Below, one piece after another: positions 7,140 to 57,470 of a stretch of 64,000 nt of DNA. The position numbers and the translations under genes were made by a program. The stretch is from the NCBI GenBank assembly GCA_964617735.1, contig CAZTXT010000001.1, positions 331,589 to 395,588 of the forward strand, read 5' to 3'. The DNA comes from an uncultured Candidatus Saccharibacteria bacterium. Lineage in GTDB: Bacteria; Patescibacteriota; Minisyncoccia; Phycocordibacterales; DSPV01. The notes under the pieces were generated by a model. It was given only the letters and a program-made list of their open reading frames with translations, made no database searches and was not told where the DNA came from. Every line of letters begins with the position of its first letter. The stretch's first letter is position 1.

Positions 7140-7146
7140 ACATTAA

Positions 7147-8820
<1,674 letters not shown>

Positions 8821-9388: not shown

Positions 9389-9985
9389 ATGCGTTTGTCT
9401 AGCGCAATCCATAATCATAGAATCATGACTCTCTTCTCTATTCTTTTAGTCATCGTCGTTTTGGTGTTCGCATGGATCGTATTCGCCTACAACCGCTTCG
9501 TTTCTCTCATCAATCGTTCTAAAGAGGCATGGGCGGATATTGATGTACAGCTTAAGCGTCGCTACGATCTCATTCCCAACCTCGTGAACTCCGTGAAAGG
9601 CTATGCAGCGCACGAGAAATCGGCGTTCGAGAATGTTACGAAAGCGCGCGCGAGTGCAATGGGAGCCCAGAGCCTTGCCGATAAGAATCAAGCGGAGAAC
9701 GTGCTCTCGGGAGCGCTTAAATCTTTGTTCGCGGTGGCTGAAGCGTATCCGGAACTGAAAGCGAATCAGAACTTTTTACAGTTACAAAGCGATCTGACCG
9801 ACACGGAGGACAAAATACAGTCAGCCCGCCGTTTCTACAATGGCAATGTTCGCGACCTCAACACCGCGATCGAATCGTTCCCCGGCAATCTCATTGCCTC
9901 TATGTTCCACTTCGAGAAGATGGAACTCTTTGAGCTTAGCGGTGCTGATACCGCTGCGAAAGAGCCAGTTCACGTGAGCTTCTAG
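9389..9985 (+). CDS. lemA: LemA family protein
   Basis: N-terminal TM segment followed by 'NRFVSLINRSKEAWADIDVQLKRRYDLIPNLV', the LemA signature. Paired with htpX as is commonly seen. Confidence 0.8.
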   Translation: MRLSSAIHNHRIMTLFSILLVIVVLVFAWIVFAYNRFVSLINRSKEAWADIDVQLKRRYDLIPNLVNSVKGYAAHEKSAFENVTKARASAMGAQSLADKNQAENVLSGALKSLFAVAEAYPELKANQNFLQLQSDLTDTEDKIQSARRFYNGNVRDLNTAIESFPGNLIASMFHFEKMELFELSGADTAAKEPVHVSF

Positions 9986-10050
9986 CGGCAGAGGAGCCCG
10001 TTTGGCCTGCTGTTATTGTGTTTGCCGTCTCATTCCTATAAGCTATCCTC

Positions 10051-11016: not shown

Positions 11017-11101
11017 GGAGGAGTCGCATAGTGGCCTAGTGCGCTCGCTTGGAAAGCGAGTAGGGGGAAACCCCTCGAGAGTTCGAATCTCTCCTCCTCC
11101 G
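11017..11101 (+). tRNA. tRNA-Ser(GGA), type II with long variable arm, no encoded CCA
   Basis: Acceptor GGAGGAG/CTCCTCC, D-loop 'agtgg', anticodon loop 'ttGGAaa', long variable arm, T-arm GAGAG-TTCGAAT-CTCTC, discriminator G. Confidence 0.85.
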
Positions 11102-11288
11102 ATGCGATTTTGAGAATACCTTTTGGTATTCGTAATCGCATTTCGTGTGAATGCGAGATTCGAAAGCCGCAGCGCACGGAGCGAGTGGAGCGAGCGAAGT
11201 CCGACCGAAGGTCGGGCGCGAGGCGGGGTCGAGAGTACTTGGATTTTTGGAGTCCGCAGGACGAACAAAAAGCTTAGTAACTCGTGAC

Positions 11289-11345
11289 CGAATCTCTCCT
11301 CCTCCGCCTGAAGAAGAAAGTATCGGAGGTATGCGAAGGCATACC
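11289..11345 (+). repeat. Direct repeat B1 (contains an 18-bp copy of the tRNA-Ser 3' end)
   Basis: Matches 14963-15019 with about 5 mismatches over 57 bp. The first 18 nt equal tRNA-Ser positions 11084-11101. Confidence 0.8.
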
Positions 11346-11409
11346 CCGGTGATGCGCTGCGGAGGGCTAAGTTGGCTTCGCTCGTAGGTTAGGAGTAATG
11401 TGAAAGTCT

Positions 11410-13338
11410 ATGGCATGGGACGACGGTTTAAGCGCAGGAACATCGGCGCATCGGATTGCGGGATCAACCCATCGGCGTATTCGGGTTTTAGCGGGTCCTG
11501 GCACGGGTAAATCCTTCGCAATGAAGCGACGTGTGGCTCGCATACTTGAAGTTGAAGGCATCGATCCTACGCAGGTGCTCGCAGTAACCTTTACACGAGT
11601 TGCTGCTGAAGATATTCAGCGTGAACTTCTGTCCTTGGGTGTGACGGGCGCTGACAGGTTGAAAGCAAAGACACTCCACAGTCTGGCGATGTCGATACTC
11701 ATGCGTAATCATGTGCTTACCGCCTTAGGTCGAGTACCAAGACCTCTCAACAAATATGAACTTGAGCCATTATTGGCAGATTTGAGTAATACACACGGAA
11801 ACAAGCGTGAGCGTAAGCGTTTGATTAGGGCTTACTCTGCCGCATGGGCACGCCTACAAACTCAGGAGCCTGGGTATACTCGCTCTCCAGCAGAACAATC
11901 TTTTGTGGACGATTTGGTTGCCTGGTTACGTTTTCACAAAGCGATGCTCGTCGATGAATTGATACCGCATCTGTACCAATACTTACGAAATAATCCGGGG
12001 GCTCCAGAAAGAAACGAATTTCGACACCTGTTGGTTGATGAATATCAAGATCTAAATCGTGCTGAACAAGACGCCCTCCATTTTCTTGGGGAGAGCGGCT
12101 CTCTTTGCGTTATTGGTGACGACGATCAATCTATTTATAGCTTCAAACACGCACACCCTGAAGGTATTCGTGATTGGAGCACGGTGCACGCGGCAGACGA
12201 TCATGCAATAGAAGAGTGTCGAAGGTGTCCGACCACTGTCGTACGAATGGCGAACGCCCTCATAGCGCGGAACACTGATCGAATTGTGGGCCGTCTGATG
12301 ACCGAGAGACCAGAAAATGGCTCGGGTGAAGTTGTAATACGCCAATACCGGAGTGCCACACAGGAAACGGAGGCAGTTGCCGAAAGAATATCAGCGTTGA
12401 TAGCAAGTGGTATTGCGCCGAGCGAGATTATTGTTCTCACTCAACGCGAAGCATTTGCTACACCAATTTTTGATCAACTGAGAACGAAAAATATCCCAAC
12501 AAAATCCTATTACGCCGAATCGAGCCTCGACACATTGGAGGCCCAGGAGCGCTTCGCGACCCTAAAGCTCCTTTTGGATAACGAGGATCGAATCGCTTTA
12601 CGTTGGCTCCTTGGCTATGGGGCGGCGGATTGGAGAACGAATGCGTATCGACGTTTAATGAATTACGTAAGAGCAAATCACACATCTCCTTGGAATGCCT
12701 TAAATGCGCTGGTGGCAGGTACCGTCAGTGTTCCTTATACAGGCGCTCTCGTGAGTCGATTCAACGTAATCAAAGCTGAACTAGACTCGTTGCAGGGCGC
12801 GGCAAATCTGGATGAATTCATTTCGCGCTGGCTTCCAGAAAACCCCAATACCGCACTTCTCAGTGAAGCTGTCACTCAAAGCAAAGAAGGACTTGAAACT
12901 TCTCAAGAACTTTACGACGCCTTATACGAAGCGATCACGCACCCAGAAATACCATCTGAAGTTTCGGAAGTAAGGATAATGAGTCTACATAAAAGTAAGG
13001 GTCTGAGTGCCCCGTTCGTATTCATTGTTGGCTGCGTTGAGGGCCTCTTACCCGCATCGGCCGATCCGGATCTAACCGAGGACGAGCAAGCCGCAAAACT
13101 CGAAGAGGATCGGCGGCTATTTTATGTCGGAATTACCCGAGTCAAAGCCGACCCTACGGCAAATATAGTAGGGTATTTGGCCCTGACCTATGCCCGTACT
13201 ATGCCTGCGGCCGAAGCATATGTTAGTCAAATTACACCCTCTCAAACCGTAGGAGGAATGGCATATTTGCAGCCGACTCGGTTCATTGCAGAAATGGCTC
13301 CTCACGCCCCTGTGGCACAGACCAACACCCCTCTCTAA
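11410..13338 (+). CDS. UvrD/Rep-like superfamily 1 DNA helicase (short form)
   Basis: Walker A 'VLAGPGTGKS', motif II 'LLVDEYQDLN', 'VLAVTFTRVAAEDIQ', C-terminal 'IMSLHKSKGLSAPFVFIVGC' UvrD_C motif. Confidence 0.8.
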   Translation: MAWDDGLSAGTSAHRIAGSTHRRIRVLAGPGTGKSFAMKRRVARILEVEGIDPTQVLAVTFTRVAAEDIQRELLSLGVTGADRLKAKTLHSLAMSILMRNHVLTALGRVPRPLNKYELEPLLADLSNTHGNKRERKRLIRAYSAAWARLQTQEPGYTRSPAEQSFVDDLVAWLRFHKAMLVDELIPHLYQYLRNNPGAPERNEFRHLLVDEYQDLNRAEQDALHFLGESGSLCVIGDDDQSIYSFKHAHPEGIRDWSTVHAADDHAIEECRRCPTTVVRMANALIARNTDRIVGRLMTERPENGSGEVVIRQYRSATQETEAVAERISALIASGIAPSEIIVLTQREAFATPIFDQLRTKNIPTKSYYAESSLDTLEAQERFATLKLLLDNEDRIALRWLLGYGAADWRTNAYRRLMNYVRANHTSPWNALNALVAGTVSVPYTGALVSRFNVIKAELDSLQGAANLDEFISRWLPENPNTALLSEAVTQSKEGLETSQELYDALYEAITHPEIPSEVSEVRIMSLHKSKGLSAPFVFIVGCVEGLLPASADPDLTEDEQAAKLEEDRRLFYVGITRVKADPTANIVGYLALTYARTMPAAEAYVSQITPSQTVGGMAYLQPTRFIAEMAPHAPVAQTNTPL

Positions 13339-14511
13339 TTGTCTATGAGTAAGGATGATTATTTCTACCAACACTTGCAGAAAAATACCCTAAAAGATAA
13401 GGATGTTTTTTTGTGGGCGGCTTTAAACATTGAAAATAGCTTTTCGGGGCGGGTTGATATTCTTACGACCGGGCTACACCGATTCTTTTTAGAATCATCG
13501 AAGTTAATACTGAATGCGATTAAGCTTTACGAAGAGGGGTTTTTTGATGCCGCCTTCTACAGCACACGCTCTGCCCTTGAACTCGCGAGAGTTGTTACAT
13601 ATTTCTCAAATGAGAATGAACTTCAGGATAGTGAGGAATATAAAAATTGGAGAAAAGGTGGAAAATTCCCTTTTGATGCAGCAATAAGAAAACAACTGGA
13701 AGCAAGTGGAAGTGTGTACACAGAGGTACACACAACATTGAAGGATTTCTTTGACGAGCAGAAGGATCGACTTTCATCCGTTCAAAAATATATACACAAG
13801 CAAGGTTATAGGACCTTTTATGAAAGAGGATTTACGAATCCAGAAAGGGATAAACAACGGCAGGAAGTAATTGCCGATGATTTCTACCAGTTTCTTAAGG
13901 GGACGTTGGCTGAAGTAGCTTTTCTACGTTTATGTATTGATCCGTTCCCAATCCTCTTACGTGATAGTCAGGTAATGTATAAAATTCATTTTCAAGGAAT
14001 GACGGAGCCTTTTAGTGACGATTTTGTTACTAAAATTATTGGAGAAAATAAAATCAAACTGTACCGTTCAACCGAATTTTACGTCTCGCATCTAAATTAT
14101 TTTAGCGACAACGAAGAACTTACCGAAGAGATGTATACATTGGTTAATAACCAATACTACGATAGAAAAACCTGGTCGATTATTCAACCGCAAGTACATT
14201 TACTTTCCAAAAACGACACCGCTGCAGTCAACATATTTAATATCTCAAATAAGATTGCGAAAATATATATGTTTGGCGGGTTTGTTTGGTACTTCAGTGA
14301 TGTTAATTCACCTGGAGACCATACAGGATTTTCTTCAGAAGACTTATTGAGGGTAAAAGAGTCAGAGATAAAAACTAACTCAAAATACAAAGAATCCTAC
14401 ATGTCTTATTTCAACTTCGACGACGATGGTTTATGGGTTGAGCACAACGAGCCGCTAAACAAACCTGAGATCATTGAAATCGAGAAAGTACTCAATCCTA
14501 AGGTTCAATAG
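13339..14511 (+). CDS. Hypothetical 390-aa protein, translationally coupled to the helicase, AT-rich
   Basis: The TTG/ATG start abuts the helicase stop (TAA at 13336-13338). Codon composition differs markedly from the flanking genes. No motif recognised. Confidence 0.55.
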   Translation: MSMSKDDYFYQHLQKNTLKDKDVFLWAALNIENSFSGRVDILTTGLHRFFLESSKLILNAIKLYEEGFFDAAFYSTRSALELARVVTYFSNENELQDSEEYKNWRKGGKFPFDAAIRKQLEASGSVYTEVHTTLKDFFDEQKDRLSSVQKYIHKQGYRTFYERGFTNPERDKQRQEVIADDFYQFLKGTLAEVAFLRLCIDPFPILLRDSQVMYKIHFQGMTEPFSDDFVTKIIGENKIKLYRSTEFYVSHLNYFSDNEELTEEMYTLVNNQYYDRKTWSIIQPQVHLLSKNDTAAVNIFNISNKIAKIYMFGGFVWYFSDVNSPGDHTGFSSEDLLRVKESEIKTNSKYKESYMSYFNFDDDGLWVEHNEPLNKPEIIEIEKVLNPKVQ

Positions 14512-14794
14512 TTACACTACCTTTTGTAATTTTAATCCTGGACTTAAAACACCCCATAAGTTCACGTTTCTCCGCTCCCGTACCTTCTTTCAGAATGTAT
14601 TTCGCGTAGGTCCGTTGATCAACTTCCTCATGTTTCGTCTTGGCTCCGGAGAACCCTAGTACGCTTCGTTGAAACTTGTTGAATCGTTGTAGTTCTTCCT
14701 CGAACTTGTATCTGATGCCCAGCTCGTTGAAATCGACCTTATCCAAGTTTACGTACGAAAGGAAGCCGTGTTTTCGGTTCAAACTTCGGGACAT
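14498..14794 (-). CDS. Hypothetical small protein (about 99 aa) convergent on the helicase operon
   Basis: Internal Met with an upstream purine-rich stretch. The longer ORF reads through repeat B2, so the short form is preferred. Confidence 0.25.
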   Translation of the reverse strand: MSRSLNRKHGFLSYVNLDKVDFNELGIRYKFEEELQRFNKFQRSVLGFSGAKTKHEEVDQRTYAKYILKEGTGAEKRELMGCFKSRIKITKGSVTIEP

Positions 14795-14962
14795 CGTCCC
14801 CGTATTTGCAAAATTGATAGCTTTTGCTATCTCATTTTGCAAACAAGTTGAGGAAGCGGAGCTTCCGTGAGATTCGAACAGCGGAGCGGTGTTTCGCCAG
14901 CAGGCGAAACCGCGAGCTGGTGCCCAGACCGAGCCGAGTGACGACGAGGCGAGAGTTGCGGG

Positions 14963-15019
14963 CGAATCTCTCCTCCTCCGCCCGAAGAAGAAAGTATCGG
15001 AGATATGCGGACGCATAGC
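14963..15019 (+). repeat. Direct repeat B2 (contains an 18-bp copy of the tRNA-Ser 3' end)
   Basis: See B1. Confidence 0.8.
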
Positions 15020-15102
15020 AGCGAGAGGCGTTATGGGTCGGTTCTTGTACATAGAAGTTCAGCCAGCTTGAGAAAGCTTCGTACTAAATGTAATAATTAC
15101 GC

Positions 15103-15526
15103 TATGGCAACAATCAATCCCTACATTAACTTCAATGGAAATGCTGAAGAAGCATTTAATTTCTACAAGTCAGTATTTGGCGGAGAGTTTACGAATATCA
15201 TTCGCTTCAAAGAACTCTCAAGCCCTGAGTTCCCGGTAGCGGCGAATGAAGCGGATAAGATCATGCGCATCGAGTTGCCGATCGGCAAAAACGTTTTGAT
15301 CGCGAATGATGTCCCGGAAAGCATGGGACGAGTGAACGAGAATGAAAACAGATCCAAGATAGCGATTATTACAGAAACTAAAGAAGAAGCCGATAAACTC
15401 TTCAAAGGTCTTTCGGAAGGGGGCAGCGTTGAAATGCCTATGGATGAAAGTCCTTGGGGTACCTATTTTGCCATGTTCAGGGATAAGTATGGCATCGAAT
15501 GGACAGTGGAGTTTAAACGAAACTAA
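15103..15526 (+). CDS. VOC/glyoxalase-fold protein (PhnB-like)
   Basis: 'MATINPYINFNGNAEEAFNFYKSVFGG' is a typical PhnB/3-demethylubiquinone MTase-like VOC N-terminus. Lies between repeat B2 and the outer repeat A'. Confidence 0.55.
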
Positions 15527-15652
15527 TGGCTAACGGCAAGATGTGATTTTGAGAATACCTTTTGGTAGTTGAGGAAGCAAGAAAATCTATTTTCTTAGAG
15601 AGCATGCTTGGTACAAGATTCGATATTCCAAGAAGTGTGCTAGAATACCATT

Positions 15653-16121: not shown

Positions 16122-17066
16122 ATGCGACCCTCATCGATCTTAGTCACCGGCTCCGCCGGTTTTATCGGCGGGAATTTCGTGCGCGTCTTTAAGCGCGAGT
16201 TCCCGCAGACAGCGCTGGTCGGTCTCGACATCAGGGAGAGCAAGAACGGCGAATCGGTTTTTTATCGCGGCTCGATCACCGACCCCAAACTTCTCGATGC
16301 GATCTTTACGCAGCATAAGCCGGAATACGTCTTTCACTTCGCAGCCATACCGCGCGTAACATATTCGGTCTTGCACCTTTCGGAGACGACCGAGGTGAAT
16401 GTTTACGGCACCACGGTGCTTTTAGAAAAGTCTCGGGATCATGGCGTCAAGCGATTCATCTTTTCATCGTCGTCATCCGTGTATGGCGGTGCAAAGAAAT
16501 TGCCGACCAAAGAGAGCGAGAATCCTCCCAATCCGCAGTCGCCGTATGCCGCACATAAATATGTGTGTGAGATTTTCTGCCGGCAGGCAGCCAAGCTCTA
16601 CGGAATGGACGCTCTCTCCCTGCGCTACTTCAATGTCTACGGGCCGGGTCAGTACGGGAACGCGCCGTACTCGACGGTGATCTCCGCGTGGCTCGAAGCG
16701 CTCTATTTTCCAAATGGTGAGAAACCCTACCTTGAGGGAGATGGTGACCAGTCGAGAGACTTCTCTTATGTTGATGATGTGGTGGCGGCTAATATCGCTG
16801 CGATGCGCTCTGAAAAGAGATTTGATGGGGATGTCTTCAATATCGGTGCCCAATCGCGCACCGATCTGCGCACCGTCAAACGATTGATCGAGCAGCATAC
16901 CGGGAAAACGCTCGATCTAGACCTCCGGCCGCCGCGGATAGGTGATGTGCAGCATACGTTTGCCGATATATCCAAAGCCTCGGAGCGATTCGGCTTTAAG
17001 CCAGCCTTTTCCTTCGAAGCGGGCCTCTCCCGGACAGTGGATTGGTTTAAAAACAGAACCCGTTAG
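16122..17066 (+). CDS. NAD-dependent epimerase/dehydratase (SDR family)
   Basis: 'ILVTGSAGFIGGNFV' Rossmann motif and a YxxxK catalytic pair. Confidence 0.8.
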   Translation: MRPSSILVTGSAGFIGGNFVRVFKREFPQTALVGLDIRESKNGESVFYRGSITDPKLLDAIFTQHKPEYVFHFAAIPRVTYSVLHLSETTEVNVYGTTVLLEKSRDHGVKRFIFSSSSSVYGGAKKLPTKESENPPNPQSPYAAHKYVCEIFCRQAAKLYGMDALSLRYFNVYGPGQYGNAPYSTVISAWLEALYFPNGEKPYLEGDGDQSRDFSYVDDVVAANIAAMRSEKRFDGDVFNIGAQSRTDLRTVKRLIEQHTGKTLDLDLRPPRIGDVQHTFADISKASERFGFKPAFSFEAGLSRTVDWFKNRTR

Positions 17067-17075
17067 CCATTTTCC

Positions 17076-17864
17076 ATGAACACCGAAACATTCGATCCAT
17101 CGGCGTATGTTAGGGAGAATTCCCGGCCTCTCTCCCTAACCCATAAAGGCCCGATCGGCCTGCGTTTGCGCTGTATCGACGATCGCGCGTCCGACTCGGA
17201 CGATTGCGACCGGCCGATAGCCATTCCGGGCGGCGGTTTGGGGCTCGTGATGGATGTGCTGGGAGCCTGTACGCTGCTACGACGCGCCGGCAAACACGTT
17301 TCTATCGAACCAAAAGAGGCGATAGCATTGGTCGAGCGCGCTATCGGATCCATCAACTTCCATACAGATGAAAAGAGCGTGCAGAATCATGGCGTCGTGT
17401 GCGGCGGGTGCGGTCACTGCAATGGAGCGCTCGTCGATCCCGTCAAATATCTGCTTTCGGAATCGGACGCGAGATTTTTTATGGAGAGCGGACTCGCCGA
17501 GCTCAAAGAAAAATTGAAAGCATCGGGTATCAAGCCGACAGTCTACACCGGAGCGCATGCGGCGGCGGGTGTGATGGTGGTGATGGGCGAGGATGTCGAT
17601 CTTCCCTCTGTCGGAGTGTCGGGCGAGCATGTGTATGTGTACCACCAAGATCTTCACCAGATGATCTTGAAACTGATCGCGCATGAGTTGCATCGGTCGC
17701 TTGCACATCATTCTCAACGTTTGAGCGAACAAGAATTAGAAACGGCGCTTGTGCAATCCGCACAACAGCGGCTTGCGGTCACACTCGAGAAACTCGCGAA
17801 AGATCTCCCGCAGTTTCTGGTGCACCGGAAGCCGGAGCTTGTTGTAACTACTCTCTCGCGATGA
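17076..17864 (+). CDS. Hypothetical Cys/His-motif protein ('CIDDR'...'HGVVCGGCGHC'), possibly beta-carbonic-anhydrase-like
   Basis: Motifs seen by eye only. Operonic with the epimerase and DUF192 genes. Confidence 0.45.
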   Translation: MNTETFDPSAYVRENSRPLSLTHKGPIGLRLRCIDDRASDSDDCDRPIAIPGGGLGLVMDVLGACTLLRRAGKHVSIEPKEAIALVERAIGSINFHTDEKSVQNHGVVCGGCGHCNGALVDPVKYLLSESDARFFMESGLAELKEKLKASGIKPTVYTGAHAAAGVMVVMGEDVDLPSVGVSGEHVYVYHQDLHQMILKLIAHELHRSLAHHSQRLSEQELETALVQSAQQRLAVTLEKLAKDLPQFLVHRKPELVVTTLSR

Positions 17865-18555: not shown

Positions 18556-21267
18556 ATGTCGCCGACAATCTTTATCAGCAAGCGCGATGGCACGAAGGAG
18601 CTCTTTAACGCTGACAAGATCAACCGCTCCATCGAGCGTGCCTGCGCAGGACTCTCCGATCCGGTCGCGATGGTGACGCAAGTTGCCACCGACACGCGTC
18701 TTACTCTCTATGATGGCATTACTACCGAGGAAATGGACAAAGCGACCATCAATGCGGCCGTACAAAACATAAAAGATGACATAGAATATGACAAAGTAGC
18801 TACCCGCCTCTTCCTCAAGACGATCTACCGACGGGTGATCGGGGAATACGATCTCGATGATCCTGCTGACCTTGCGAAAAAGCATCGCGCCGCATTCATT
18901 CGTTACATCCGCGACGGCGTTGCCAACCATCGTCTGCATGCATACATGGTGACGAAGTACGACCTCGAGCGGCTCGCGGATGCGCTGATGCTTGACCGCG
19001 ATGATCTGTTCCTCTACTCGGGAGTGGACACCCTGATGAATCGCTATGCGATCAAAGATGAGAACCAGCAGCCGACCGAGACGCCGCAGTTTCTGTTCAT
19101 GCGTATCGCGATGGGGCTCTCTTATCACGAAGCCGATCCGACTGCGCAGGCGATCCGCTTCTATGACAAGATGTCCAAGCATGAATATATCGCCGGCGGT
19201 TCGACGAATGTCGCAGCGGGCACGATGCGTCCGGCGCTCTCCAACTGTTTTCTACTTGAGATTCACGATGACATGGATCACATCGCGAAGTCGGTATCCG
19301 ACATCATGCTTCTCTCCAAGGGTTCGGGCGGCATCGGTGCATCATTAACCAAATTGCGCGCGGCCGGCTCTCCCCTGAAGTCGAATTTTGGTGGTGCGTC
19401 CACTGGACCTACTCCATTCGCGAAGATCATCGACACCGCGATACGCGCGATCCAGCGCGGCGGCAAGAAAAAAGGCGCGCTCTGTTTTTACATGGAGAAC
19501 TGGCACCTGGATTTTCCTGAATTCATTGATTGGAAGCACAATGCGGGCGATGACTACATGCGCATGCGCACCGCGAATACCGCCGTGTTCCTCTCCGATG
19601 AGTTTATGAAGCGCGTCGTGGGTGGGCAAGACTGGTATATGTTCGATCCGGCCGAAGCAGGTGAACTCAACGAGCTTTACGGCTCGGCGTTTTCCGAGAA
19701 ATACAAGGAGTATGTTGCGAAAGCGGAGCGCGGCGAACTGCGTGTGTACAAAAAAGCGCCGGCCCGGGAGCAATTCCGGCAGATTCTGGTTTCTCTGCAG
19801 TCAACGTCGCATCCGTGGCTGACGTGGAAGGACCCCATGAACCTCCGGGCGCTCAACAATAACACCGGTACGATCCATATGTCGAATCTCTGCACCGAGA
19901 TCTGTTTGCCGCAAGACAGAAACAACGTTGCCGTTTGTAACTTGATCTCAATAAACCTTGCTAAGCATGTCTACAATCGTGAGATGAACTGGGCGAAGCT
20001 CGAAGAATCGGTACGACTTTCCGTGCGGCAACTCGATAACCTGATCGACATCAACCAACTCGCGATCCCCGAAGCACGCCGTTCGGATTCCGAGAATCGC
20101 GCGATCGGGCTCGGGGTGATGGGATTTTCGGATACAATCGAGCAGTTCGGTATGAGCTACGACAGCACGCATGCGCACGATTTTGCCGACCGGATTTTTG
20201 AATTCATCAGCTACATGGCGATCGACGAGAGCGCGAACCTCGCCCGCGAGCGCGGTGCGTACAAGAATTTCCCCGGCTCACGCTGGTCCTTGGGCATGGT
20301 ACCGTTCGACACTATCCAAGTTCTTGAAGATGACCGCGCCCGTCCCGTAACCGTATCGCGGGAGAGCAAACACAAAGGACTCAACTGGGATCTGCTTCGT
20401 GCGAAAGTGAAGTCAGGTATCCGCAACGCAACCCTGATGGCGGTGGCACCGAACGCGAACATCGGACTGGTCGCCGGCACGACGCCGGGCATCGATCCGC
20501 GGTTTGCACAGGTCTTCTCGCGCAACAAAATCTCCGGCAAGTACATCGATATCAACCATAATCTTGTCAAAGATCTTAAAAATATGGGACTGTGGGACAA
20601 GGTGAGGCACGCGATCATCGAAAGTCAAGGAGACATATCGTTGATCGAGGGAATCCCCGAGCACATCAAGGGAATGTACAAAACATCGTTCACAACCTCG
20701 CCGTATGCATTTATCGAAGTTGCCGCACGTGCACAGAAATGGGTTGATCAAGGGCTCTCGCGCAATATGTACCTTGAGACGCGTGACATCGACGAGACGA
20801 TGCAAATTTACACGGCCGCGTGGGAGAAAGGCGTCAAGACTACCTATTACTTACACATGAAGCCACGCCATACCGCCGAGCAGAGTACCGTGCGTGTCAA
20901 CAAAGCAGAGAAGATCGGCAAGATCGGTTTCGGAGCCGTTGCGGCGAAGATGGCTGAACGGAAGCTCGGCTTCGCAGCGCCTTTACAAAAGTCCCTTGAA
21001 ATAGAGACGCCGGTTGAAATCCCGGTCGCTAAGCCTGCGTCTCTCCCACAGGCGGTAAAAATCGAGGAAGTGATCTCGGTAGCGGTTCCAGTTGCGGCGG
21101 CTGCGCCAGCTATAGAGGCAGTTCCGGTGACCGTTCAGCCGCGCCCGAAGCTTACGCCAGAGCAGGTTCAGGAGTTATTGAAAGATTTTGGGAAGAAACC
21201 GATACACAATCCTGGAGATGGTCCGGTGGATCCGGGGGCAGACAATATTTGCATCGGTTGCGAATGA
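18556..21267 (+). CDS. nrdA: Ribonucleotide reductase class I alpha subunit NrdA with ATP-cone and a roughly 110-aa A/P/V-rich C-terminal extension
   Basis: ATP-cone 'ISKRDGTKELFNADKINRSIERA' and catalytic 'NLCTEI'. Followed by nrdB. Confidence 0.9.
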   Translation: MSPTIFISKRDGTKELFNADKINRSIERACAGLSDPVAMVTQVATDTRLTLYDGITTEEMDKATINAAVQNIKDDIEYDKVATRLFLKTIYRRVIGEYDLDDPADLAKKHRAAFIRYIRDGVANHRLHAYMVTKYDLERLADALMLDRDDLFLYSGVDTLMNRYAIKDENQQPTETPQFLFMRIAMGLSYHEADPTAQAIRFYDKMSKHEYIAGGSTNVAAGTMRPALSNCFLLEIHDDMDHIAKSVSDIMLLSKGSGGIGASLTKLRAAGSPLKSNFGGASTGPTPFAKIIDTAIRAIQRGGKKKGALCFYMENWHLDFPEFIDWKHNAGDDYMRMRTANTAVFLSDEFMKRVVGGQDWYMFDPAEAGELNELYGSAFSEKYKEYVAKAERGELRVYKKAPAREQFRQILVSLQSTSHPWLTWKDPMNLRALNNNTGTIHMSNLCTEICLPQDRNNVAVCNLISINLAKHVYNREMNWAKLEESVRLSVRQLDNLIDINQLAIPEARRSDSENRAIGLGVMGFSDTIEQFGMSYDSTHAHDFADRIFEFISYMAIDESANLARERGAYKNFPGSRWSLGMVPFDTIQVLEDDRARPVTVSRESKHKGLNWDLLRAKVKSGIRNATLMAVAPNANIGLVAGTTPGIDPRFAQVFSRNKISGKYIDINHNLVKDLKNMGLWDKVRHAIIESQGDISLIEGIPEHIKGMYKTSFTTSPYAFIEVAARAQKWVDQGLSRNMYLETRDIDETMQIYTAAWEKGVKTTYYLHMKPRHTAEQSTVRVNKAEKIGKIGFGAVAAKMAERKLGFAAPLQKSLEIETPVEIPVAKPASLPQAVKIEEVISVAVPVAAAAPAIEAVPVTVQPRPKLTPEQVQELLKDFGKKPIHNPGDGPVDPGADNICIGCE

Positions 21268-21272
21268 GGCTC

Positions 21273-21401
21273 GGGAGGTTATTTTGAAAGACCGGAAAAA
21301 TCCCCCAGCGGGGATTTTTCCTAATCCGCTCGGCTCGCTCTCAGGTGCCCAGGATAGGGCACCTGAACCGGCCTCCTCGCCGTCTTTCAAAATAACCTCC
21401 C
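21273..21401 (+). repeat. 129-bp structured inverted-repeat element with embedded intrinsic terminator (copy 1)
   Basis: Terminal inverted repeat 'gggaggttattttgaaagaccgg' / 'ccgtctttcaaaataacctccc'. Inner hairpins 'gaaaaatcccc-cagc-ggggatttttc' and 'caggtgccc-aggata-gggcacctg'. A second copy lies at 51427-51548. Confidence 0.75.
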
Positions 21402-21598
21402 TCGCTTTGAGGGTTTATACAAGTAATTTGTGCGCGTTTTTCAATTGCGACGGTTAAGTAAAGATGCTACTATTTCAATCACTATGAAAGTTCAGAAGTT
21501 ACTGGAGATGCTTTCTGAGCGGAATAATAATTTTATCTTTTATAGCCTCTTTGTTTTCTCGGTCATAATTTATTACTCCTAATTCTTAACCCATTCCC

Positions 21599-22603
21599 AT
21601 GCTCATCGGGAAAGCATCGCCGGAGGATATGAACCTTCACCCACTGCGCTACAAGTGGGCGTATGATTTGTACAATCAGGCCGTGAGGAACACGTGGTTC
21701 CCGCATGAGATCGCACTCAAGGAAGATTTAGACGATTGGCAGAAGATGACCGAAGACGAGCGGCATGCAGTCAAATTTACGATGGCGTTCTTCAATCCGG
21801 CGGAGCTGATCGTCAATCGCTCAATAGCTCTCGGCATCTATCCGTACCTCAAGTCGCCCGAGTGCCATCTCTACCTTGCCAAACAGATGTGGGAGGAGGC
21901 GAACCACTGCGTCGCATTCGAGTATGTGCTCGAGACGTTCCCCTTTGATCGCGAGAAGATCTTCACTTTGCACCTCGAAGTTCCCTCGATGCACAAGAAA
22001 GAAGAATATGTCACGCGCTACACCAAGCGCATGACGGAGGAAAACTTGGATATTACAACGACCGAAGGCAAAAAAGATTTTATCCGAAACCTGGTGGCCA
22101 CTAACATTGTGATGGAAGGTGTCTGGTTCTATTCGGGTTTCATGGTCTCGCTTAGCTTTCGCCAGAGAAATCAATTGCGCAACTTTGGCTCCATGATCAA
22201 CTGGGTACTGCGCGACGAGTCTTTACATCTGAAGTTCGGCATTAACCTCATCCACAATATCTTGGAAGAGAACTCTGACCTCTTGACCGAGGAATTTGCC
22301 GACGAGATACGCACTATCATCATTGAAGGGGTTGATTTGGACACCGCGTACAACCGTGACCTCTTTCCGAATGGCATCCTCGGTCTCAACGCTGACTATG
22401 TCAATCAATACGTCCAATATGTCGCCGACCGCCGGCTTGAAGAGCTAGGGCTCCCCAAGCACTACAATGTCACTAACCCCGCCAAGTGGATGTCCGCTGC
22501 GACCGATGTCTTTGAACTCGTCAATTTCTTTGAAGCGCAAAACACGTCGTACGAAGTGGATTCTCACGCGCACGAGACGAAGAAGAAAGAAGAAGCAAAA
22601 TAA
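21599..22603 (+). CDS. nrdB: Ribonucleotide reductase class I beta subunit NrdB
   Basis: Diiron ferritin-like motifs 'EEANHCVAFEY', 'EGVWFYSGF' and 'DESLHLKFG'. Confidence 0.9.
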   Translation: MLIGKASPEDMNLHPLRYKWAYDLYNQAVRNTWFPHEIALKEDLDDWQKMTEDERHAVKFTMAFFNPAELIVNRSIALGIYPYLKSPECHLYLAKQMWEEANHCVAFEYVLETFPFDREKIFTLHLEVPSMHKKEEYVTRYTKRMTEENLDITTTEGKKDFIRNLVATNIVMEGVWFYSGFMVSLSFRQRNQLRNFGSMINWVLRDESLHLKFGINLIHNILEENSDLLTEEFADEIRTIIIEGVDLDTAYNRDLFPNGILGLNADYVNQYVQYVADRRLEELGLPKHYNVTNPAKWMSAATDVFELVNFFEAQNTSYEVDSHAHETKKKEEAK

Positions 22604-24520: not shown

Positions 24521-24987
24521 CTCTCATGTCTACCTTGCGTCTATAAGCCGAATTCTGTCGTTCAATCTTGCGATTGAACGGATAGCCATTTATCTAGGCA
24601 CTCCATTACTGAAGAGCTCAAGCGGCACTCCCCATGAACACTTCCATGTTGGGGCTCGACCTTGCAGCTGGGTAAGGATTTAGCCGTTTCACTTCTTCTG
24701 TTGCCAAAAGAACTCGCCCCATGAAGTAGACTTTCGTCACTTAACGGGGCGGTCATTCGCTTTCGCTCATGACCGTCTCTGTTCGCACCTCGCACTTTGC
24801 AGTGGACGGGCGTTACCCGCTACCTTCTTAACCGAGCACCTTTCAAGTCATCTTAATCATCTTGATCAACACGACCTAAAAGGTGCTCGGTAGCAGTTCG
24901 GACTTTCCTCCGAGCACCTTTCAAGTCATCTTAATCATCTTGATCAACACGACCTAAGAGGTGCTCGGCGGCTACCCGACGCAGGGC
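24521..24987 (-). ncRNA. rnpB: RNase P RNA (bacterial type A) carrying a duplicated 59-nt P3-like hairpin module
   Basis: On the minus strand: 'GGAGGAAAGTCCGAAC' (P4 5'), 'GGTAACGCC', 'GCTTGAGC', 'CCTAGATAAATGGCT', 'ACGACAGAATTCGGCTTATAG' (P4 3'). A terminator hairpin plus T-run sits at 24496-24519. A sigma70-like promoter (TTGCAG-17-TACAAT) sits at 24994-25022 on the minus strand. Confidence 0.75.
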
Positions 24988-32943: not shown

Positions 32944-33020
32944 GCCGGGGTAGCTCAGTTGGTTAGAGCGTCCGCCTGAAGAGCGGTAGGTCGCCAGTTC
33001 GACTCTGGCCCCCGGCACCA
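32944..33020 (+). tRNA. tRNA-Phe(GAA) with encoded CCA
   Basis: Acceptor GCCGGGG/CCCCGGC, D-arm 'agctcagttggttagagc', anticodon loop 'ctGAAga', T-arm GCCAG-TTCGACT-CTGGC, CCA at 33018-33020. Confidence 0.9.
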
Positions 33021-34475
33021 GTTGGGAAAAGTCAAAGAATCTTTATTCGCCTCGCTTCGCTCGGCGAGCACTTCGCGCGGCCTGTTCAGCGTAAAATGCA
33101 GTTTCCGATCTTCCAGACAAAAGTTCGAGCCGATGGTTTTAAGAAATGTTGTCATTCCTGCAAAGTTCTCCGAACTTTGCAGAATAAAGGCTTGATTCAA
33201 GGATTTTACGAACTCACGAGCTAGTTCGAGCCACGACAATCCTTTCTGTTCAAAATCAGTGATTTGTTCCTGAAGTTGTAACTTTTGGGAAATGAATTTT
33301 TCTTTTTTCCTCGCGTACTCTTCATGCGTCAACCCCTCACTCAAATACAAGTCTACAAGCTTGTCCAGCTTTTTCTCGACATCGGCTAACTCGACTTTAA
33401 GATTTTGAACAGAAAGGACAGCTTGTTGCCTTGCTCGCCTTTCGTCTTTTTCAAGTTCTGCTAATACCTTCTCCATGTCGTGGCTCGGCAAGGAAACTTT
33501 TCGTAAGAGATTTCTGATTTGCTCGGCTAACTTTTCCTCCCGCACAAAATGCTTTTCTTGGCAGTTTCCTTTTTTCTTGGTGCATCGGTAGTAGTGGTGT
33601 CCTTTCTGTATTTCGGCGGTGATTGAACATCCGCAACTTTTGCATTTCATAAGTCCAAGAAAAGCAAAGTGGTGTTTCTTTATCTCGCAGACCTTGCCGC
33701 GTTTTTCCAAAACCTCCTGCACCTTGTCGAAAAGTTTCTTTGATATGATCGGCTCGTGAGTTCCTTCGAAAATTTCCCCCTTCCACCTCATGAGTCCGGT
33801 GTAGAAAATATTTTGTAGCATGACAGGAATATGGCTCATGGCGATATTGCCGTTTGTATTGCTTTTCAGACCATTTTCCTTGCACCAATTTGCGAGAGAG
33901 TGGAGAGTGTAGTTTCCGGTGGAATACAGTTCAAATAACCTCCTCACTTTTGGGGCTTTCTCCGCATCAACATCAATTCCTCTCGTCTTTGGGTTGTTCA
34001 GGTATCCCACCGGAGCCCAGCCAGGCCAAACGCCATTTCGTATTTTTTGTCTCAAACCTCGCTTCACATTCTCTCGCAAATTGTCTACAAAATATTTTGA
34101 TTGGCCGAAAGCGATATTGAGCATAAACGAACCTTGCGGTGTCGGTTCGAACCAGAAGGTGGGAAATTTCAAAGATCTAATCAAGCCTTTATCAATCATG
34201 TAAATGATGCGTCCACCATCTACACTGTTTCTCGCAAGACGATCGGGGTGCCATGAGACAATACCCTCGGCTTTTCCTTTCTCAATCAATGACAACATTT
34301 CTTGAAACTTGGGACGGCCAGTCTCTTTGGCTGTTTGTGCCTCGCAAAGCGAGGCGACAATTTCAAGTTTTTCTTTGGCGCAATACAAAGACAGCTCAGC
34401 AAGCTGAGCTTGAATTGAAAGCACTTGTCGGTCATCTTCCTCGGTTGATTTCCGAGCGTAGAGGATGTATTTCAT
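32955..34475 (-). CDS. Large serine recombinase (resolvase catalytic domain, recombinase domain and zinc ribbon)
   Basis: N-terminal 'YARKSTEEDD' catalytic Ser motif, zinc-ribbon 'CKSCGCS...YYRC'. The last roughly 20 codons run antisense through tRNA-Phe. Confidence 0.85.
   Translation of the reverse strand: MKYILYARKSTEEDDRQVLSIQAQLAELSLYCAKEKLEIVASLCEAQTAKETGRPKFQEMLSLIEKGKAEGIVSWHPDRLARNSVDGGRIIYMIDKGLIRSLKFPTFWFEPTPQGSFMLNIAFGQSKYFVDNLRENVKRGLRQKIRNGVWPGWAPVGYLNNPKTRGIDVDAEKAPKVRRLFELYSTGNYTLHSLANWCKENGLKSNTNGNIAMSHIPVMLQNIFYTGLMRWKGEIFEGTHEPIISKKLFDKVQEVLEKRGKVCEIKKHHFAFLGLMKCKSCGCSITAEIQKGHHYYRCTKKKGNCQEKHFVREEKLAEQIRNLLRKVSLPSHDMEKVLAELEKDERRARQQAVLSVQNLKVELADVEKKLDKLVDLYLSEGLTHEEYARKKEKFISQKLQLQEQITDFEQKGLSWLELAREFVKSLNQAFILQSSENFAGMTTFLKTIGSNFCLEDRKLHFTLNRPREVLAERSEANKDSLTFPNWCRGPESNWRPTALQADALTN
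33014..33094. repeat. Inverted repeat a, left copy (includes the tRNA-Phe CCA end)
   Basis: Reverse complement of 34530-34610. Confidence 0.8.
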
Positions 34476-34529
34476 GGTTTTGGTGAGAGTTAGTTGATAA
34501 AAATGTTCTTGTATTCTTCCCTAGGGAAT

Positions 34530-34610
34530 TTCACGCTGAACAGGCCGCACGAAGTGCTCGCCGAGCGAAGCGAGGCGAATAAAGATTCTTTGACTTTTCC
34601 CAACTGGTGC
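34530..34610. repeat. Inverted repeat a, right copy
   Basis: Contains a copy of the recombinase C-terminal coding segment (ORF 34494..34679 shares '...FTLNRP.EVLAERSEANKDSLTFPNWC'). Confidence 0.8.
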
Positions 34611-34695
34611 ACTACTCTTGAATTAGTCCGAACGCATTTTGCCGCCGCAGGCGGCGAGGACTGTCCGCGCGAGAATTGAGCGGGCGGAGCCCGCA
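34607..34695. repeat. Inverted repeat b, left copy
   Basis: Reverse complement matches 35995-36085 over about 55 bp at the outer ends, with a variable centre. Confidence 0.7.
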
Positions 34696-35008
34696 TCTTT
34701 TCAAACAGCCAAAGAGGACTAATTCAAGAAAACCATCGACTCGAACTTTTGTCTGGAAGATCGGAGGGAAGAACACAAGAACATTTTTATCTGATTTAAC
34801 GGCCTAGAAAGGCCGTATTTTGATGGTTGTTCTGTACCTTGACTAAACACAAGCTATATGTTATTCTCTCTGCAGTTCGTTGTAAGCGAGTATTTTTGGA
34901 ATTGCCGTAGCATTTGCGGGCTTGTTGGCTTTGTCTAACACGTTTAACTAACAAAGGACTATCGCATGTGAAAGATGACTTGAGTGAGTCATCTAAGTCA
35001 ACGTAGCA

Positions 35009-35722
35009 GTGCACTATAAGCCTATGGATCCAAAAAAGACTCATAGGTTACCTCATCTCCCTCGTCGTCCACGTCCGGCTGGAGAAGCTGAACGCTTGTC
35101 TCGCTGGTTTCGTGACAGGGATATGGAGCTGCAGATTCGCCGAAACCAGGAACGTCGTGGAGAAATACACAACGTTCCGGTCCCTCTAAAAGATCGGATT
35201 CGAAAGAAGACTGATCCGAAAGAGTGGGCTGGCCCTTTTCACAAGGGGGTCAAGGTTGGTGAGATCCGCTCACTCGTGGTTGGGTATACCGCAGTAATGG
35301 TAGACCCAGTGTTTGTTGCAGTGCTGAGCGAATGGCCGCCGAACCCAGAAGTTAAGGAACCCTACTCGAAAGAGAAACGGTTTCTGATCGCAAAGTTCAG
35401 CAGCAAGCGCTACAGTGAACCCGCAACAACAACCGAGTGGATTACTGGCATTGAGAAGCGACCGTGGCTACACGTTTTATCCGTGTGGAACAGTTGCGAC
35501 GTCAGTGCCGGTTTCCTTGAGGAAGGTTGGGTCGAGGGGAAACTCTCGACTGAACAGCTCGCTGACGCATGGGAAGTATTCAGACATGCGTTGACGGGAG
35601 TTCCTCTGTCTGATCGAGTTCGTGCTCAAGTGGGTGCGCCAATAATTCACCCACGAGATCCACGCATTCAGTATCAGATCGAGGAGGCTTCAAGGTTTGC
35701 GGTTCTCTGCGAAGGCAGCTAA
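35009..35722 (+). CDS. Hypothetical 237-aa protein (cargo of the tRNA-Phe element)
   Basis: ORF enclosed by the inverted repeat b pair. No motif recognised. An upstream sigma70-like 'TTGACT...TATATG' lies at about 34840-34868. Confidence 0.45.
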   Translation: MHYKPMDPKKTHRLPHLPRRPRPAGEAERLSRWFRDRDMELQIRRNQERRGEIHNVPVPLKDRIRKKTDPKEWAGPFHKGVKVGEIRSLVVGYTAVMVDPVFVAVLSEWPPNPEVKEPYSKEKRFLIAKFSSKRYSEPATTTEWITGIEKRPWLHVLSVWNSCDVSAGFLEEGWVEGKLSTEQLADAWEVFRHALTGVPLSDRVRAQVGAPIIHPRDPRIQYQIEEASRFAVLCEGS

Positions 35723-35994
35723 CCCATGTGAGGTAACCAATACTGGGAGATCAGAGCATCTGATCGGTTGAACCAGCGGGGGACGGAGAAAACGCCCTGG
35801 CAACAGAAGCTAGTACGGGATCATAAGCTACATACATTCCCGAAAGCACAACTAGGTACGGCAACTACCTCAATCGTTGCATTCAAGGAGCGAGGTTCTA
35901 TCCCAAACTCCGCCGCACACATAAGTGTGCGGTTTTTCGTATTCGCTTGGCGAATGCTAGAATTAGTTTGCGCCAAAGAAAAACTTGAAATTGT

Positions 35995-51354: not shown

Positions 51355-51426
51355 TTCACTGTCCCCATCGAAAAGGCCGAAAGCGGAATCCGCGAGTAGG
51401 TCTTTTTCTTTCAAACTCTAACCGAG

Positions 51427-51548
51427 AAAGTTATTTTGAAAGACGGCGAGGAGGCGAGCGGGCATGGTTTTTGCGAAGCAAAAGAGCAAGCCGAGCGGAT
51501 AAGGAAAAACTGCCCGCTGGGGCAGTTTTTCCGGTCTTTCAAAATAAT
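51427..51548 (-). repeat. 122-bp structured inverted-repeat element with embedded intrinsic terminator (copy 2, inverted relative to copy 1)
   Basis: 'gttattttgaaagacggcgaggaggc...ggaaaaactgcccgctggggcagtttttccggtctttcaaaataa'. Same architecture as 21273-21401 with compensatory stem changes. Lies 15 nt past the ftsZ stop. Confidence 0.75.
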
Positions 51549-51562
51549 CTTTTGAGCGGCCT

Positions 51563-52726
51563 TTATTTTTTGCGCCGCAAGAAAGCGGGAACTGCTCCCC
51601 AGTCATCCTCATCTTCACCTGCGCCTCCGGGAGCTGGTACTTTGAGCTCTTTTTTGTCTTCCATCTTCGTTTCTTCTTTTTCCCGCGAAGATGCGCCCGT
51701 CAATGCGTTGAAAATACTGCCGCCCTTGCGTTCCGGTACGGCTTCGCTGAATAGTTTTCGGTGTCCGACGTTTTCAGGGAAACCCGAAGCGATAACGGTG
51801 ATCTTGATCTCGTCTTTCTTCAGCCGGTCGTCGCGGACCGTGCCGAAGATGACCTTAGCTTCCGGATCAACCGATTCAGTGATGACCTTCGCTGCGTCTT
51901 GTATTTCAAACATAGTGAGATCGTCGCCGCCGGCAATGGAGAAGAGCACGCCCTTCGCACCCTGAATGGAGAGGTCGAGGAGAGGAGAATTGATGGCGGT
52001 TTTGGCGGCTTCTTCCGCGCGCTTCTCTCCCGATGCGCTGCCGATGCCCATCAGTGCCGAGCCCGCATTCTGGAGGATGGATTTGATGTCCGCGAAGTCG
52101 GTATTGATGATGCCCGGGATGGTGATGAGGTCGGAGATGCCTTCGACTGCTTGTTTAAGTACGTCATCACACATGGCGAACGCGGTCTTCGCCGTCGTTT
52201 CTTTGCTGACGTTGGCGAGCAAGCGGTCGTTGGGGATGACGACGGTCGCATCGACGGCCTTGCGCAGTTCGTTGAGGCCCTGTTCCGCGAATCGAGAGCG
52301 CTGCTGGCCTTCGAATGCGAATGGTTTGGTGACAACCGCTACAGTCAACGCGCCGAGTTCCTTGGCGATCTTCGCGACGATCGGTGCCGCGCCCGTGCAG
52401 GTGCCGCCGCCCATTCCGCCGGCGATGAATATCATATCGGCTCCCTTGATGGCTTCCTGGATCTCTTCGCGATTTTCCTCGACCGAGCGTTTGCCGAGCT
52501 CCGGGTCCATGCCCGTGCCGAGACCGTGGGTCAAATTCTTTCCGATGTGGATCTTTTTCTTGGGAAGGGAGTTTTGAAGATCTTGCGCGTCGGTGTTTAT
52601 GGCGATGAATTCAACGCCGCGGACCTTCGAATTTATCATATGGTTGACCGCGTTCTTGCCGGACCCGCCGATACCTAAGACTTTGATCCGTGCGAACGCT
52701 TCTACCTCTGGTTTGATTTGTGGCAT
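51563..52726 (-). CDS. ftsZ: Cell division GTPase FtsZ
   Basis: 'GIGGSGKNAVNHM' tubulin signature and an acidic/K-rich C-terminal tail. Confidence 0.95.
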   Translation of the reverse strand: MPQIKPEVEAFARIKVLGIGGSGKNAVNHMINSKVRGVEFIAINTDAQDLQNSLPKKKIHIGKNLTHGLGTGMDPELGKRSVEENREEIQEAIKGADMIFIAGGMGGGTCTGAAPIVAKIAKELGALTVAVVTKPFAFEGQQRSRFAEQGLNELRKAVDATVVIPNDRLLANVSKETTAKTAFAMCDDVLKQAVEGISDLITIPGIINTDFADIKSILQNAGSALMGIGSASGEKRAEEAAKTAINSPLLDLSIQGAKGVLFSIAGGDDLTMFEIQDAAKVITESVDPEAKVIFGTVRDDRLKKDEIKITVIASGFPENVGHRKLFSEAVPERKGGSIFNALTGASSREKEETKMEDKKELKVPAPGGAGEDEDDWGAVPAFLRRKK

Positions 52727-57454: not shown

Positions 57455-57470
57455 AGAAAGAAAAAAGAAA

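Follow-up and report, generated by a model that had tools for sequence, protein, structure and literature searches.

A dispersed palindromic DNA element with a terminator-like hairpin, found 3' of nrdA and ftsZ in a Taylorbacteria-like bacterium

ERIC sequences are single long imperfect hairpins that are conserved across genera and into which extra sequence can insert at internal sites; we know of no transposase for them. The Correia elements (CREE) have conserved 26-bp terminal repeats and a TA duplication, and are present in hundreds of copies. ERIC copies occur at low to moderate density (30 copies in E. coli K-12) and affect the stability of the mRNA that embeds them (PMC10969869), acting at mRNA 3' ends (PMC10969869, PMC2649163). 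The paired repeats of Correia elements form a duplex that is bound and cut by RNase III, and their mobilisation is inferred from presence and absence between genomes (PMC2649163, PMC10969869); they can also create promoters and bind IHF (PMC2649163). SPRITE is enriched close to the 3' ends of coding sequences and between convergent genes, has no identified target-site duplication or parent insertion sequence (IS), and transposes slowly; co-option as a terminator has been proposed for it (PMC3049150). Here we describe a palindromic DNA element of about 145 bp that is present in two copies, 3' of nrdA and ftsZ, in a 64-kb stretch of DNA (contig CAZTXT010000001.1; hereafter the window, meaning the whole stretch analysed). 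We put at roughly 50% the probability that it is a low-copy, non-autonomous mobile palindrome of the ERIC, SPRITE or Correia kind, co-transcribed in 3' untranslated regions (UTRs) and carrying a bidirectional terminator-like hairpin.

An earlier reading of the window, made from the sequence only, had placed the two copies at 21273-21401 and 51427-51548 in opposite orientations, each just 3' of a stop codon and sense to the upstream gene, and all of this was confirmed (Table 1), the distance from the stop being 5-10 nt for nrdA and ftsZ. The whole units begin 2 nt past the nrdA stop and 6 nt past the ftsZ stop, and sequence similarity among loci ends at the element boundaries. Terminal repeats of 18-22 bp had been proposed, which is correct for copy 1, where a perfect 20-bp inverted repeat (GGGAGGTTATTTTGAAAGAC) encloses 89 nt. 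The perfect repeat of copy 2, on the opposite strand, is 14 bp (TTATTTTGAAAGAC, arms at 51431-51444 and 51534-51547), again encloses 89 nt, and continues by AAAG/CTTT beyond a one-base bulge; the CGG that was quoted as part of the repeat lies outside it. The exact 14-mer TTATTTTGAAAGAC has four occurrences in the window, which are the four arms, and if up to two mismatches are allowed there are five matches, compared with a mean of 0.62 in shuffled sequence and with none of 100 shuffles reaching five.

The two copies are 79% identical over the element alone (84% mean column identity when short flanks are included) and fold with z-scores of -10.1 (copy 1) and -7.0 (copy 2) relative to dinucleotide shuffles, both strands of each copy folding to a three-way junction (z -6 to -10). 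Over both copies there is 100% identity with Logan read assemblies from SRR12313479/80, and because these are independent assemblies of two sequencing runs the copies are not an assembly artefact. Scanning the full window with the covariance model, filters off, revealed no third copy; a third match at 57420-57503 (23 bits) proved to be a native terminator instead.

A chance or locally duplicated feature would be restricted to these two sites and lacking in relatives, and the element is neither. Three other CPR (candidate phyla radiation) genomes contain full-length homologues (covariance-model E-values 1e-44 to 1e-46), giving five non-orthologous sites in four CPR genomes (two here and three elsewhere). 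A 19-mer that is invariant in the five copies has 34 matches in genome contigs, three of them real, and none in viral contigs, where a 17-mer gave 13 chance loci and none matching the covariance model. A strict two-arm pattern (14 + 14 bases) has no matches in public genome contigs or metagenome contigs; a looser 14 + 7 pattern gave 23 matches in metagenome contigs, 22 by chance and one real (L026, the same as L049 in Table 1). Phage, plasmid and E. coli collections contain no match to the element. The Rfam comparison that had been suggested returned no family for it: at gathering thresholds only tRNAs were found in the window, the best permissive matches (rsmX at 16 bits and a CRISPR repeat at 18 bits) are both noise, and the three copies in other genomes (L028, L043 and L049) gave nothing. 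A literature search on MITEs or structured RNA motifs in CPR, Patescibacteria or Parcubacteria also found nothing relevant, nor any account of small dispersed repeats or structured non-coding elements in these bacteria. Judging from these comparisons, the element most likely represents a new family, so far confined to a few Taylorbacteria-like CPR genomes.

The anatomy of the element was drawn from all five copies. Its order in the sense direction is CTC(G), P1, P2, J1, P3, J2, P1', CTCG. P1 comprises a conserved 14-bp core (TTATTTTGAAAGAC, with one variable pair) and 4-6 outer base pairs that differ from copy to copy and are always complementary (GGGAGG/CCTCCC, AAAG/CTTT, GGACAA/TTGTCC and GGAAATT/AATTTCC). 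P2 has the consensus GGAAAAA, three variable pairs, CCC-CAGC-GGG and TTTTTCC, and the initial proposal that this inner A-tract-stem-T-tract hairpin has undergone paired changes in its stem is borne out, with TCCCC/GGGGA in copy 1 versus CTGCCC/GGGCAG in copy 2. J1 (TAATCCGCTCGGCTCGCTCT) is C/T-rich, near-invariant in the five copies and unpaired or weakly paired in the folds, and P3 is a hypervariable hairpin whose sequence is unlike in each copy and which is always formed. J2, (GCCCGCTCG)CCTCCTCGCC, is kept in four of the five; the L028 copy has an extra 18-nt hairpin inserted within J2, plus a damaged P2. Across the copies the fold energies range from -46 to -80 kcal/mol (z -3.5 to -10). A conserved small open reading frame (ORF) or a peptide made by stop-codon read-through was ruled out, because the frames differ among the copies, and translated open frames of the element compared with 5.8 billion predicted proteins yielded no candidate ORF across the other copies.

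Table 1. Positions of the element, its parts and its neighbours in the window, and sites of the homologous copies in other genomes
Feature	Coordinates or locus	Strand or orientation	Remarks
Copy 1, whole unit	21270..21413	+	model R1 134.6 bits, E = 9e-38; CTC, outer stem, core, outer stem, CTCGCTTTGAGGG
Copy 1 P1 5' arm	21273..21292	+	GGGAGG outer pairs + TTATTTTGAAAGAC core; 20 nt, 100% complementary to 21382-21401
Copy 1 P2	21294..21321	+	GGAAAAATCCCC-CAGC-GGGGATTTTTCC; A-tract/stem/T-tract; pairs invariant or covarying
Copy 1 J1	21322..21341	+	TAATCCGCTCGGCTCGCTCT
Copy 1 P3	21342..21365	+	CAGGTGCCC-AGGATA-GGGCACCTG
Copy 1 J2	21372..21381	+	CCTCCTCGCC, conserved unpaired tract
Copy 1 P1 3' arm	21382..21401	+	partner of 21273-21292
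Copy 2, whole unit	51416..51556	-	model R1 177.6 bits, E = 1.5e-50
Copy 2 P1 5' arm	51534..51552	-	AAAG, bulged A, TTATTTTGAAAGAC (minus-strand reading)
Copy 2 P2	51503..51532	-	GGAAAAACTGCCC-CAGC-GGGCAGTTTTTCC
Copy 2 J1	51483..51502	-	TTATCCGCTCGGCTTGCTCT
Copy 2 P3	51469..51482	-	short hairpin TTTGC-TTC-GCAAA
Copy 2 J2	51445..51454	-	CCTCCTCGCC
Copy 2 P1 3' arm	51427..51444	-	GTCTTTCAAAATAA then CTTT
nrdA, ribonucleotide reductase large subunit	18556..21267	+	upstream neighbour of copy 1; ORF, stop TGA at 21265-21267; Pfam ATP-cone, Ribonuc_red_lgN, lgC, E = 3.9e-159
nrdB	21599..22603	+	downstream neighbour of copy 1
ftsZ	51563..52726	-	upstream neighbour of copy 2; stop TAA at 51565-51563; FtsZ homologues found
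Small zinc-ribbon ORF, 56 aa	51184..51354	+	convergent with ftsZ
A-rich/T-rich hairpin region	51372..51410	-	downstream of copy 2
Copy in L049 (= L026), Taylorbacteria RIFCSPHIGHO2_01_FULL_46_22b	rpsG|fusA	sense	3 nt past stop
Copy in L043, assembly CAYGFK	3' of sugar-transferase gene	sense	3 nt past stop
Copy in L028, assembly CAYJSB	hup|rny	antisense to both neighbours	

Comparison of orthologous sites indicates that the element has not simply been inherited in place. The site 3' of ftsZ is without it in four relatives (L003, L062, L063 and L065), two of which (L003 and L063) carry the element elsewhere in their genomes, and the nrdA|nrdB spacer is 12, 19 and 48 nt long in three relatives versus 331 nt in the window. 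With orthologous sites empty and copies at other loci, the element must have been acquired at some sites or have moved from one to another. Downstream of copy 2, the 3' portion of the hairpin region (GGCCTTTTCGA(A)TG) can be aligned with the empty ftsZ site of Taylorbacteria 46_22b, which places copy 2 between the ftsZ stop and what is probably the native ftsZ/zinc-ribbon terminator. The element would appear to insert in the tiny spacer between a stop codon and a native terminator or the next gene.

The search for target-site duplications that had been proposed found CTC on both flanks in four of the five copies. This is the identical sequence at each site, so that it may belong to the element itself or reflect a target preference, and the empty sites are too diverged for comparison. 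Insertion into pre-existing palindromic targets is unlikely, because CTC(G), lying outside the variable stem pairs, is common to several genomes. Replication orientation was rejected as an explanation, there being no switch in GC skew between the oppositely oriented copies. The possibility that GCTCG/CGCTCG is a special protein-binding word was rejected as well, since it is about two-fold over-represented throughout the window; CTCG itself is counted 404 and 414 times on the two strands versus approximately 263 and 250 expected.

The manner in which the helices have diverged bears on whether the element is maintained as DNA or as RNA. Counted on a model-fitted alignment of the five copies, the fitting of which somewhat favours structure, 16 pairs are changed on both sides, compared with 8.9 +/- 2.0 in shuffled alignments (none of 500 reaches 16) and with 4-8 in slid controls. 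Sense folds of the five copies contain a single G.U pair among 234, as opposed to 19 among 178 in the tRNAs of the window (Fisher p = 8e-7). Fold strength is about equal on both strands, and the excess of sense copies, four to the one antisense copy in L028, is not significant (p = 0.19). The near-absence of G.U pairs and the antisense copy lean towards a strand-symmetric DNA-level palindrome over a strand-specific RNA, and together with the equal folding of both strands and the non-significant sense bias they lead us to favour a DNA-level element that is also transcribed. The form maintained could be a DNA hairpin or cruciform, or a single-stranded intermediate, kept up either by the needs of a transposase acting in trans or by arm-to-arm templated correction.

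The main alternative for the same data, possible but unlikely, is a cis-acting structured RNA module under selection, located in the 3' UTR or between cistrons, with the three-way junction as the functional unit. P1 would then be a processing or insulating duplex (cut by RNase III, for example) like the stems that flank rRNAs, P2 a terminator or stabiliser, and the C/U-rich junction tracts, with their anti-Shine-Dalgarno-like CCUCC, would bind a protein or G/A-rich RNA; a 3'-UTR-derived small RNA may also arise, and the scattered sites would be ancient paralogues subject to differential loss. Such a module would fit the unpaired blocks, which show 95-100% conservation among genomes with ftsZ DNA that is 73-77% identical and therefore less conserved than the element (third positions at identical amino acids are about 46% identical, for the two relatives that are comparable codon for codon). 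It would also fit the complete divergence of the P1-outer, P2-middle and P3 helices with pairing kept, the star-like, similar pairwise identities that suggest old copies under constraint, the four sense copies beginning 2-6 nt past a stop codon, and the presence of one or two copies per genome. It does not readily account for G.U pairs at 1/234, which is unusual for helices selected as RNA, for the copy that is antisense to both neighbour genes, or for a patchy, non-syntenic distribution in which orthologous sites are empty even in genomes with the element elsewhere. Moreover, with a terminator-like hairpin at mid-unit the RNA would be cut short before P1 closes, and the element matches no Rfam family. 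A conserved structured 3'-UTR RNA had been one of two interpretations offered by the sequence-only reading; conservation and compensatory changes in five copies agree with it, but the scarcity of G.U pairs and the antisense copy point to DNA.

The second interpretation, a mobile MITE-like terminator module, survives insofar as the element is dispersed and conserved, keeps its structure and has a terminator-like hairpin. It is discrete, occupies five sites with orthologous sites empty, and its helices differ by near-pure Watson-Crick double substitutions. As in MITEs, every copy has terminal inverted repeats (14-20 bp), the unit is small (about 145 bp), non-coding, with no reading frame conserved, and folds as a stable stem-loop, and it is present or absent at orthologous sites (ftsZ 3' empty in four relatives, nrdA|nrdB in three). 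It is not AT-rich relative to its host, the GC content being 56% for copy 1, 48% for copy 2 and 50.7% for the 64-kb window. Direct repeats produced by target-site duplication flank MITEs (PMC10969869). Strict MITE membership of the element is not established, given the ambiguous duplication, the variable ends, a copy number that looks very low and the failure to find a parent IS.

Several observations weigh against a mobile palindrome. A cut-and-paste transposase is expected to conserve the outermost ends of its repeats, and here the 4-6 bp at the very ends of the inverted repeat vary from copy to copy. No clear target-site duplication is present, the CTC flanks being ambiguous. No parent IS with matching ends was found in the window or the loci examined, where no whole-genome scan for IS-length spacing was included. 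Pairwise identities between copies from different genomes are 76-83%, and as the two window copies at 79% are no closer there is no sign of recent transposition; copy number also looks very low, the invariant 19-mer matching once in each of three species-representative genomes. Approximately 85 of 130 positions are near-invariant, including the unpaired tracts, which looks like functional constraint, and the sense orientation of four of the five copies tends the same way, albeit at the p of 0.19 given above. Lastly, termination by P2 and cleavage of P1 by RNase III are predictions from sequence and from analogy with other systems.

Three further explanations were weighed. A single-strand-DNA (HUH/Y1-type) element comparable to REPINs or to the IS200/IS605 relatives with hairpin ends seems improbable to us; in it the folded hairpins would be the recognition signal and the boundary CTC(G) would be cleavage or target tetranucleotides and not a duplication. 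CTC(G) does stand at both boundaries in four of the five copies, the compensation is strand-symmetric and Watson-Crick only, REPIN hairpin arms are known to evolve by compensation (PMC3116915), and the CGTC at the foot of the right arm recalls a described class of CGTC-tagged palindromes (PMC3733652). However, such elements have separate subterminal hairpins and not a 20-bp long-range inverted repeat, few copies are present, CTCG occurs often in this genome, and a search of the window and loci, which was not exhaustive, revealed no RAYT or TnpA-Y1 gene. An invertible DNA switch flipped by a site-specific recombinase is very improbable: there are 14-20-bp inverted repeats around an 89-bp segment, and a gene for a large serine recombinase lies 12 kb from copy 1, but the enclosed segment has no promoter-like site, inversion of the symmetric P2 would alter little, four of the five copies share their orientation relative to the upstream gene, and Logan assemblies spanning each copy show a single orientation. 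Least credible of all is that the copies are look-alike ordinary terminators arising by chance, or a purely local duplication; P2 alone does resemble native terminators, yet two copies that are 30 kb apart and 79% identical and the 14-mer shuffle statistics speak against it, and it is refuted by the full-length homologues in three other genomes (E 1e-44 to 1e-46). An integron attC site was also considered and rejected: there are no R''/R' cores (RYYYAAC, GTTRRRY), the stem bases of copy 1 being GGGAGGTTATTTT and AAAATAACCTCCC and those of the others differing, and the flanking genes nrdA, ftsZ and rpsG are not cassettes.

A likely effect on the host is suggested by P2. In copy 1, copy 2, L049 and L043 this hairpin has the design of an intrinsic terminator, with A5, a 5-6-bp stem, a 4-nt loop and T5, and because three other hairpins in the window (32513, 36094 and 57468) have the same A4-5/stem/T4-5 design it is plausible that P2 is a bidirectional intrinsic terminator. 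A terminator scan marks P2 of copy 1 on the minus strand, and terminator-like hairpins are kept downstream of copy 2, L049 and L043. An AT-rich spacer follows the operon-internal copies, about 185 nt before nrdB (21414-21598) and about 270 nt before fusA (L049, about 7110-7380); a downstream gene dependent on a promoter of its own would need a long spacer of this kind. A similar AT-rich spacer is seen at 9895-10000 in a different CPR genome (L071, GCA_040384245.1), likewise after an operon-internal element, the spacers ranging over the loci from 100 to 270 nt. The spacers after operon-internal copies have no mutual sequence similarity and may carry replacement promoters.

Presumably the element spreads rarely and is tolerated because it lands in 3' UTRs. 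Once co-transcribed it would fold to a very stable three-way junction, in which P2 may stop or attenuate transcription from either side and give the upstream mRNA a protective 3' hairpin, and on read-through transcripts the 20-bp P1 duplex would be a natural substrate for RNase III. If P2 does terminate, then the element has split ancestral operons, nrdA and nrdB being 12-48 nt apart in relatives.

The host of the window, as judged from its gene sequences, is a Taylorbacteria-like CPR (Patescibacteria) bacterium, the closest named relative by FtsZ being Candidatus Taylorbacteria RIFCSPHIGHO2_01_FULL_46_22 (84% identity). A 55-aa gene is called in L065, likewise convergent 3' of ftsZ, without a recorded Pfam hit. 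The assemblies CAYGFK (L043 / L063, GCA_964349135.1) and CAYJSB (L028) are labelled 'uncultured Candidatus Saccharibacteria'; for CAYGFK this label looks generic or wrong, since its FtsZ is 81% identical to the Taylorbacteria-like FtsZ of the window.

The L071 genome, whose NrdB is 89% identical to that of the window, has inverted-repeat elements of 110-135 nt, at least four of them within 21 kb (9783-9894, 12219-12352, 16965-17089 and 17289-17409). These have the same three-way-junction architecture and both orientations, with arms that are largely mutually unrelated; one occupies the nrdA|nrdB spacer and its arms are unrelated to those of the window element. Another is immediately 5' of the RNase P RNA gene (12378-12737), and two are adjacent and mutually inverted 3' of murJ. 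Their cores consist of an A/U-flanked hairpin with a 4-nt loop plus a CUCGGCUACCCGCCU(C/G)C motif, resembling J1 and J2, and the core motif reads CUCGGCUACCCGCC. With filters off, two of them reach 28 and 24 bits against the covariance model, both in the predicted orientation (rough E 6e-7 and 9e-6), and the other two about 5 bits, and from these comparisons we only tentatively regard the L071 elements as homologous to that of the window.

It is doubtful, although worth considering, that both belong to a wider CPR superfamily with a core of about 60 nt (an A/U-flanked 4-nt-loop hairpin plus a C/U-rich motif of the CUCGGCU...CCCGCCUCC type) between copy-specific, perfectly complementary arms of 17-38 bp. 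Were this true, an undescribed DNA mechanism, for example palindrome extension or templated repair of one arm from the other, would have to make or homogenise the arms, or else the transposition chemistry would not read the termini, or the arms would be RNase III processing stems around a multi-copy, CPR-specific small RNA.

Other repeats were noted in the window. At 24832-24968 there are two tandem 59-nt imperfect palindromes (CCGAGCACCTTT...AAAGGTGCTCGG) that are 98% identical and 19 nt apart; Logan contig L066 ends within this repeat, and it has no Rfam match. The large serine recombinase (506 aa, 32955-34475, minus strand) abuts a tRNA gene (32944-33017), and the region 32944-36093 contains inverted repeats of 83-91 nt that are 1.3-1.6 kb apart (98% and 87% complementary) as well as several shorter ones; the arrangement resembles that of an integrated element, or of a segment that has been duplicated or can invert. 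Inside this recombinase-associated region, at 34616-34729, 14-bp perfect arms (TCTTGAATTAGTCC) surround 86 nt with two G+C-rich hairpins. Within 11017-15567 a tRNA 3' end, CGAATCTCTCCTCCTCCG (11084-11101), is repeated at 11289-11306 and 14963-14980, accompanied by 68-nt and 28-nt flanking repeats, and GC falls to 0.45 between 12 and 16 kb, which is suggestive of one or more islands integrated at the tRNA.

CPR genomes are tiny and dense and are known almost only from metagenomes. With its largest contig at about 0.67 Mb, this genome nevertheless tolerates a 145-bp palindrome inside its nrdAB operon and another directly 3' of ftsZ, and the same family lies inside the str operon of a relative. 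The copies provide a natural data set of palindromic DNA that keeps perfect complementarity while its sequence drifts, and the element could mark exchange between CPR lineages.

A mobile palindrome of this kind can be set beside four described systems. REPINs and REPs resemble it in being extragenic, in arms that evolve by compensation, and in a hairpin form that is thought to be recognised (PMC3116915). They are doublets of REPs of about 20-40 bp (PMC3733652) with a GTAG/CGTC tag, a link to RAYT, and tens to hundreds of copies, whereas the CPR element has no GTAG, a single CGTC at the inner foot of the right arm only, and no doublet; a RAYT gene was not seen near any copy, whole genomes not having been searched. 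Correia elements (CREE/NEMIS, Neisseria) share with it inverted repeats around a conserved core and co-transcription with neighbours, but the conserved 26-bp repeats, TA duplication, hundreds of copies, promoters and IHF binding of that family were not found for the CPR element. SPRITE is likewise a small dispersed repeat that folds like an intrinsic terminator. It differs in its 28% GC, a terminal repeat of AAAA/TTTT only, a single 18-bp duplex with a U-rich tail, and about 30 copies per genome, compared with 48-56% GC, a 14-20-bp inverted repeat enclosing the terminator-like hairpin, and one or two detectable copies. ERIC (IRU, about 127 bp) is close to it in size, is also an imperfect palindrome, is found in intergenic or 3' regions that are transcribed, and varies in presence between strains and species; it belongs to another host phylum, blastn finds no match of the CPR element in 5,426 E. 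coli genomes, and the three-way junction, internal terminator-like hairpin and copy-specific outer stem pairs set the CPR element apart. Although by sequence it is a member of none of these families, the element has its nearest functional and structural counterparts in ERIC, SPRITE and Correia.

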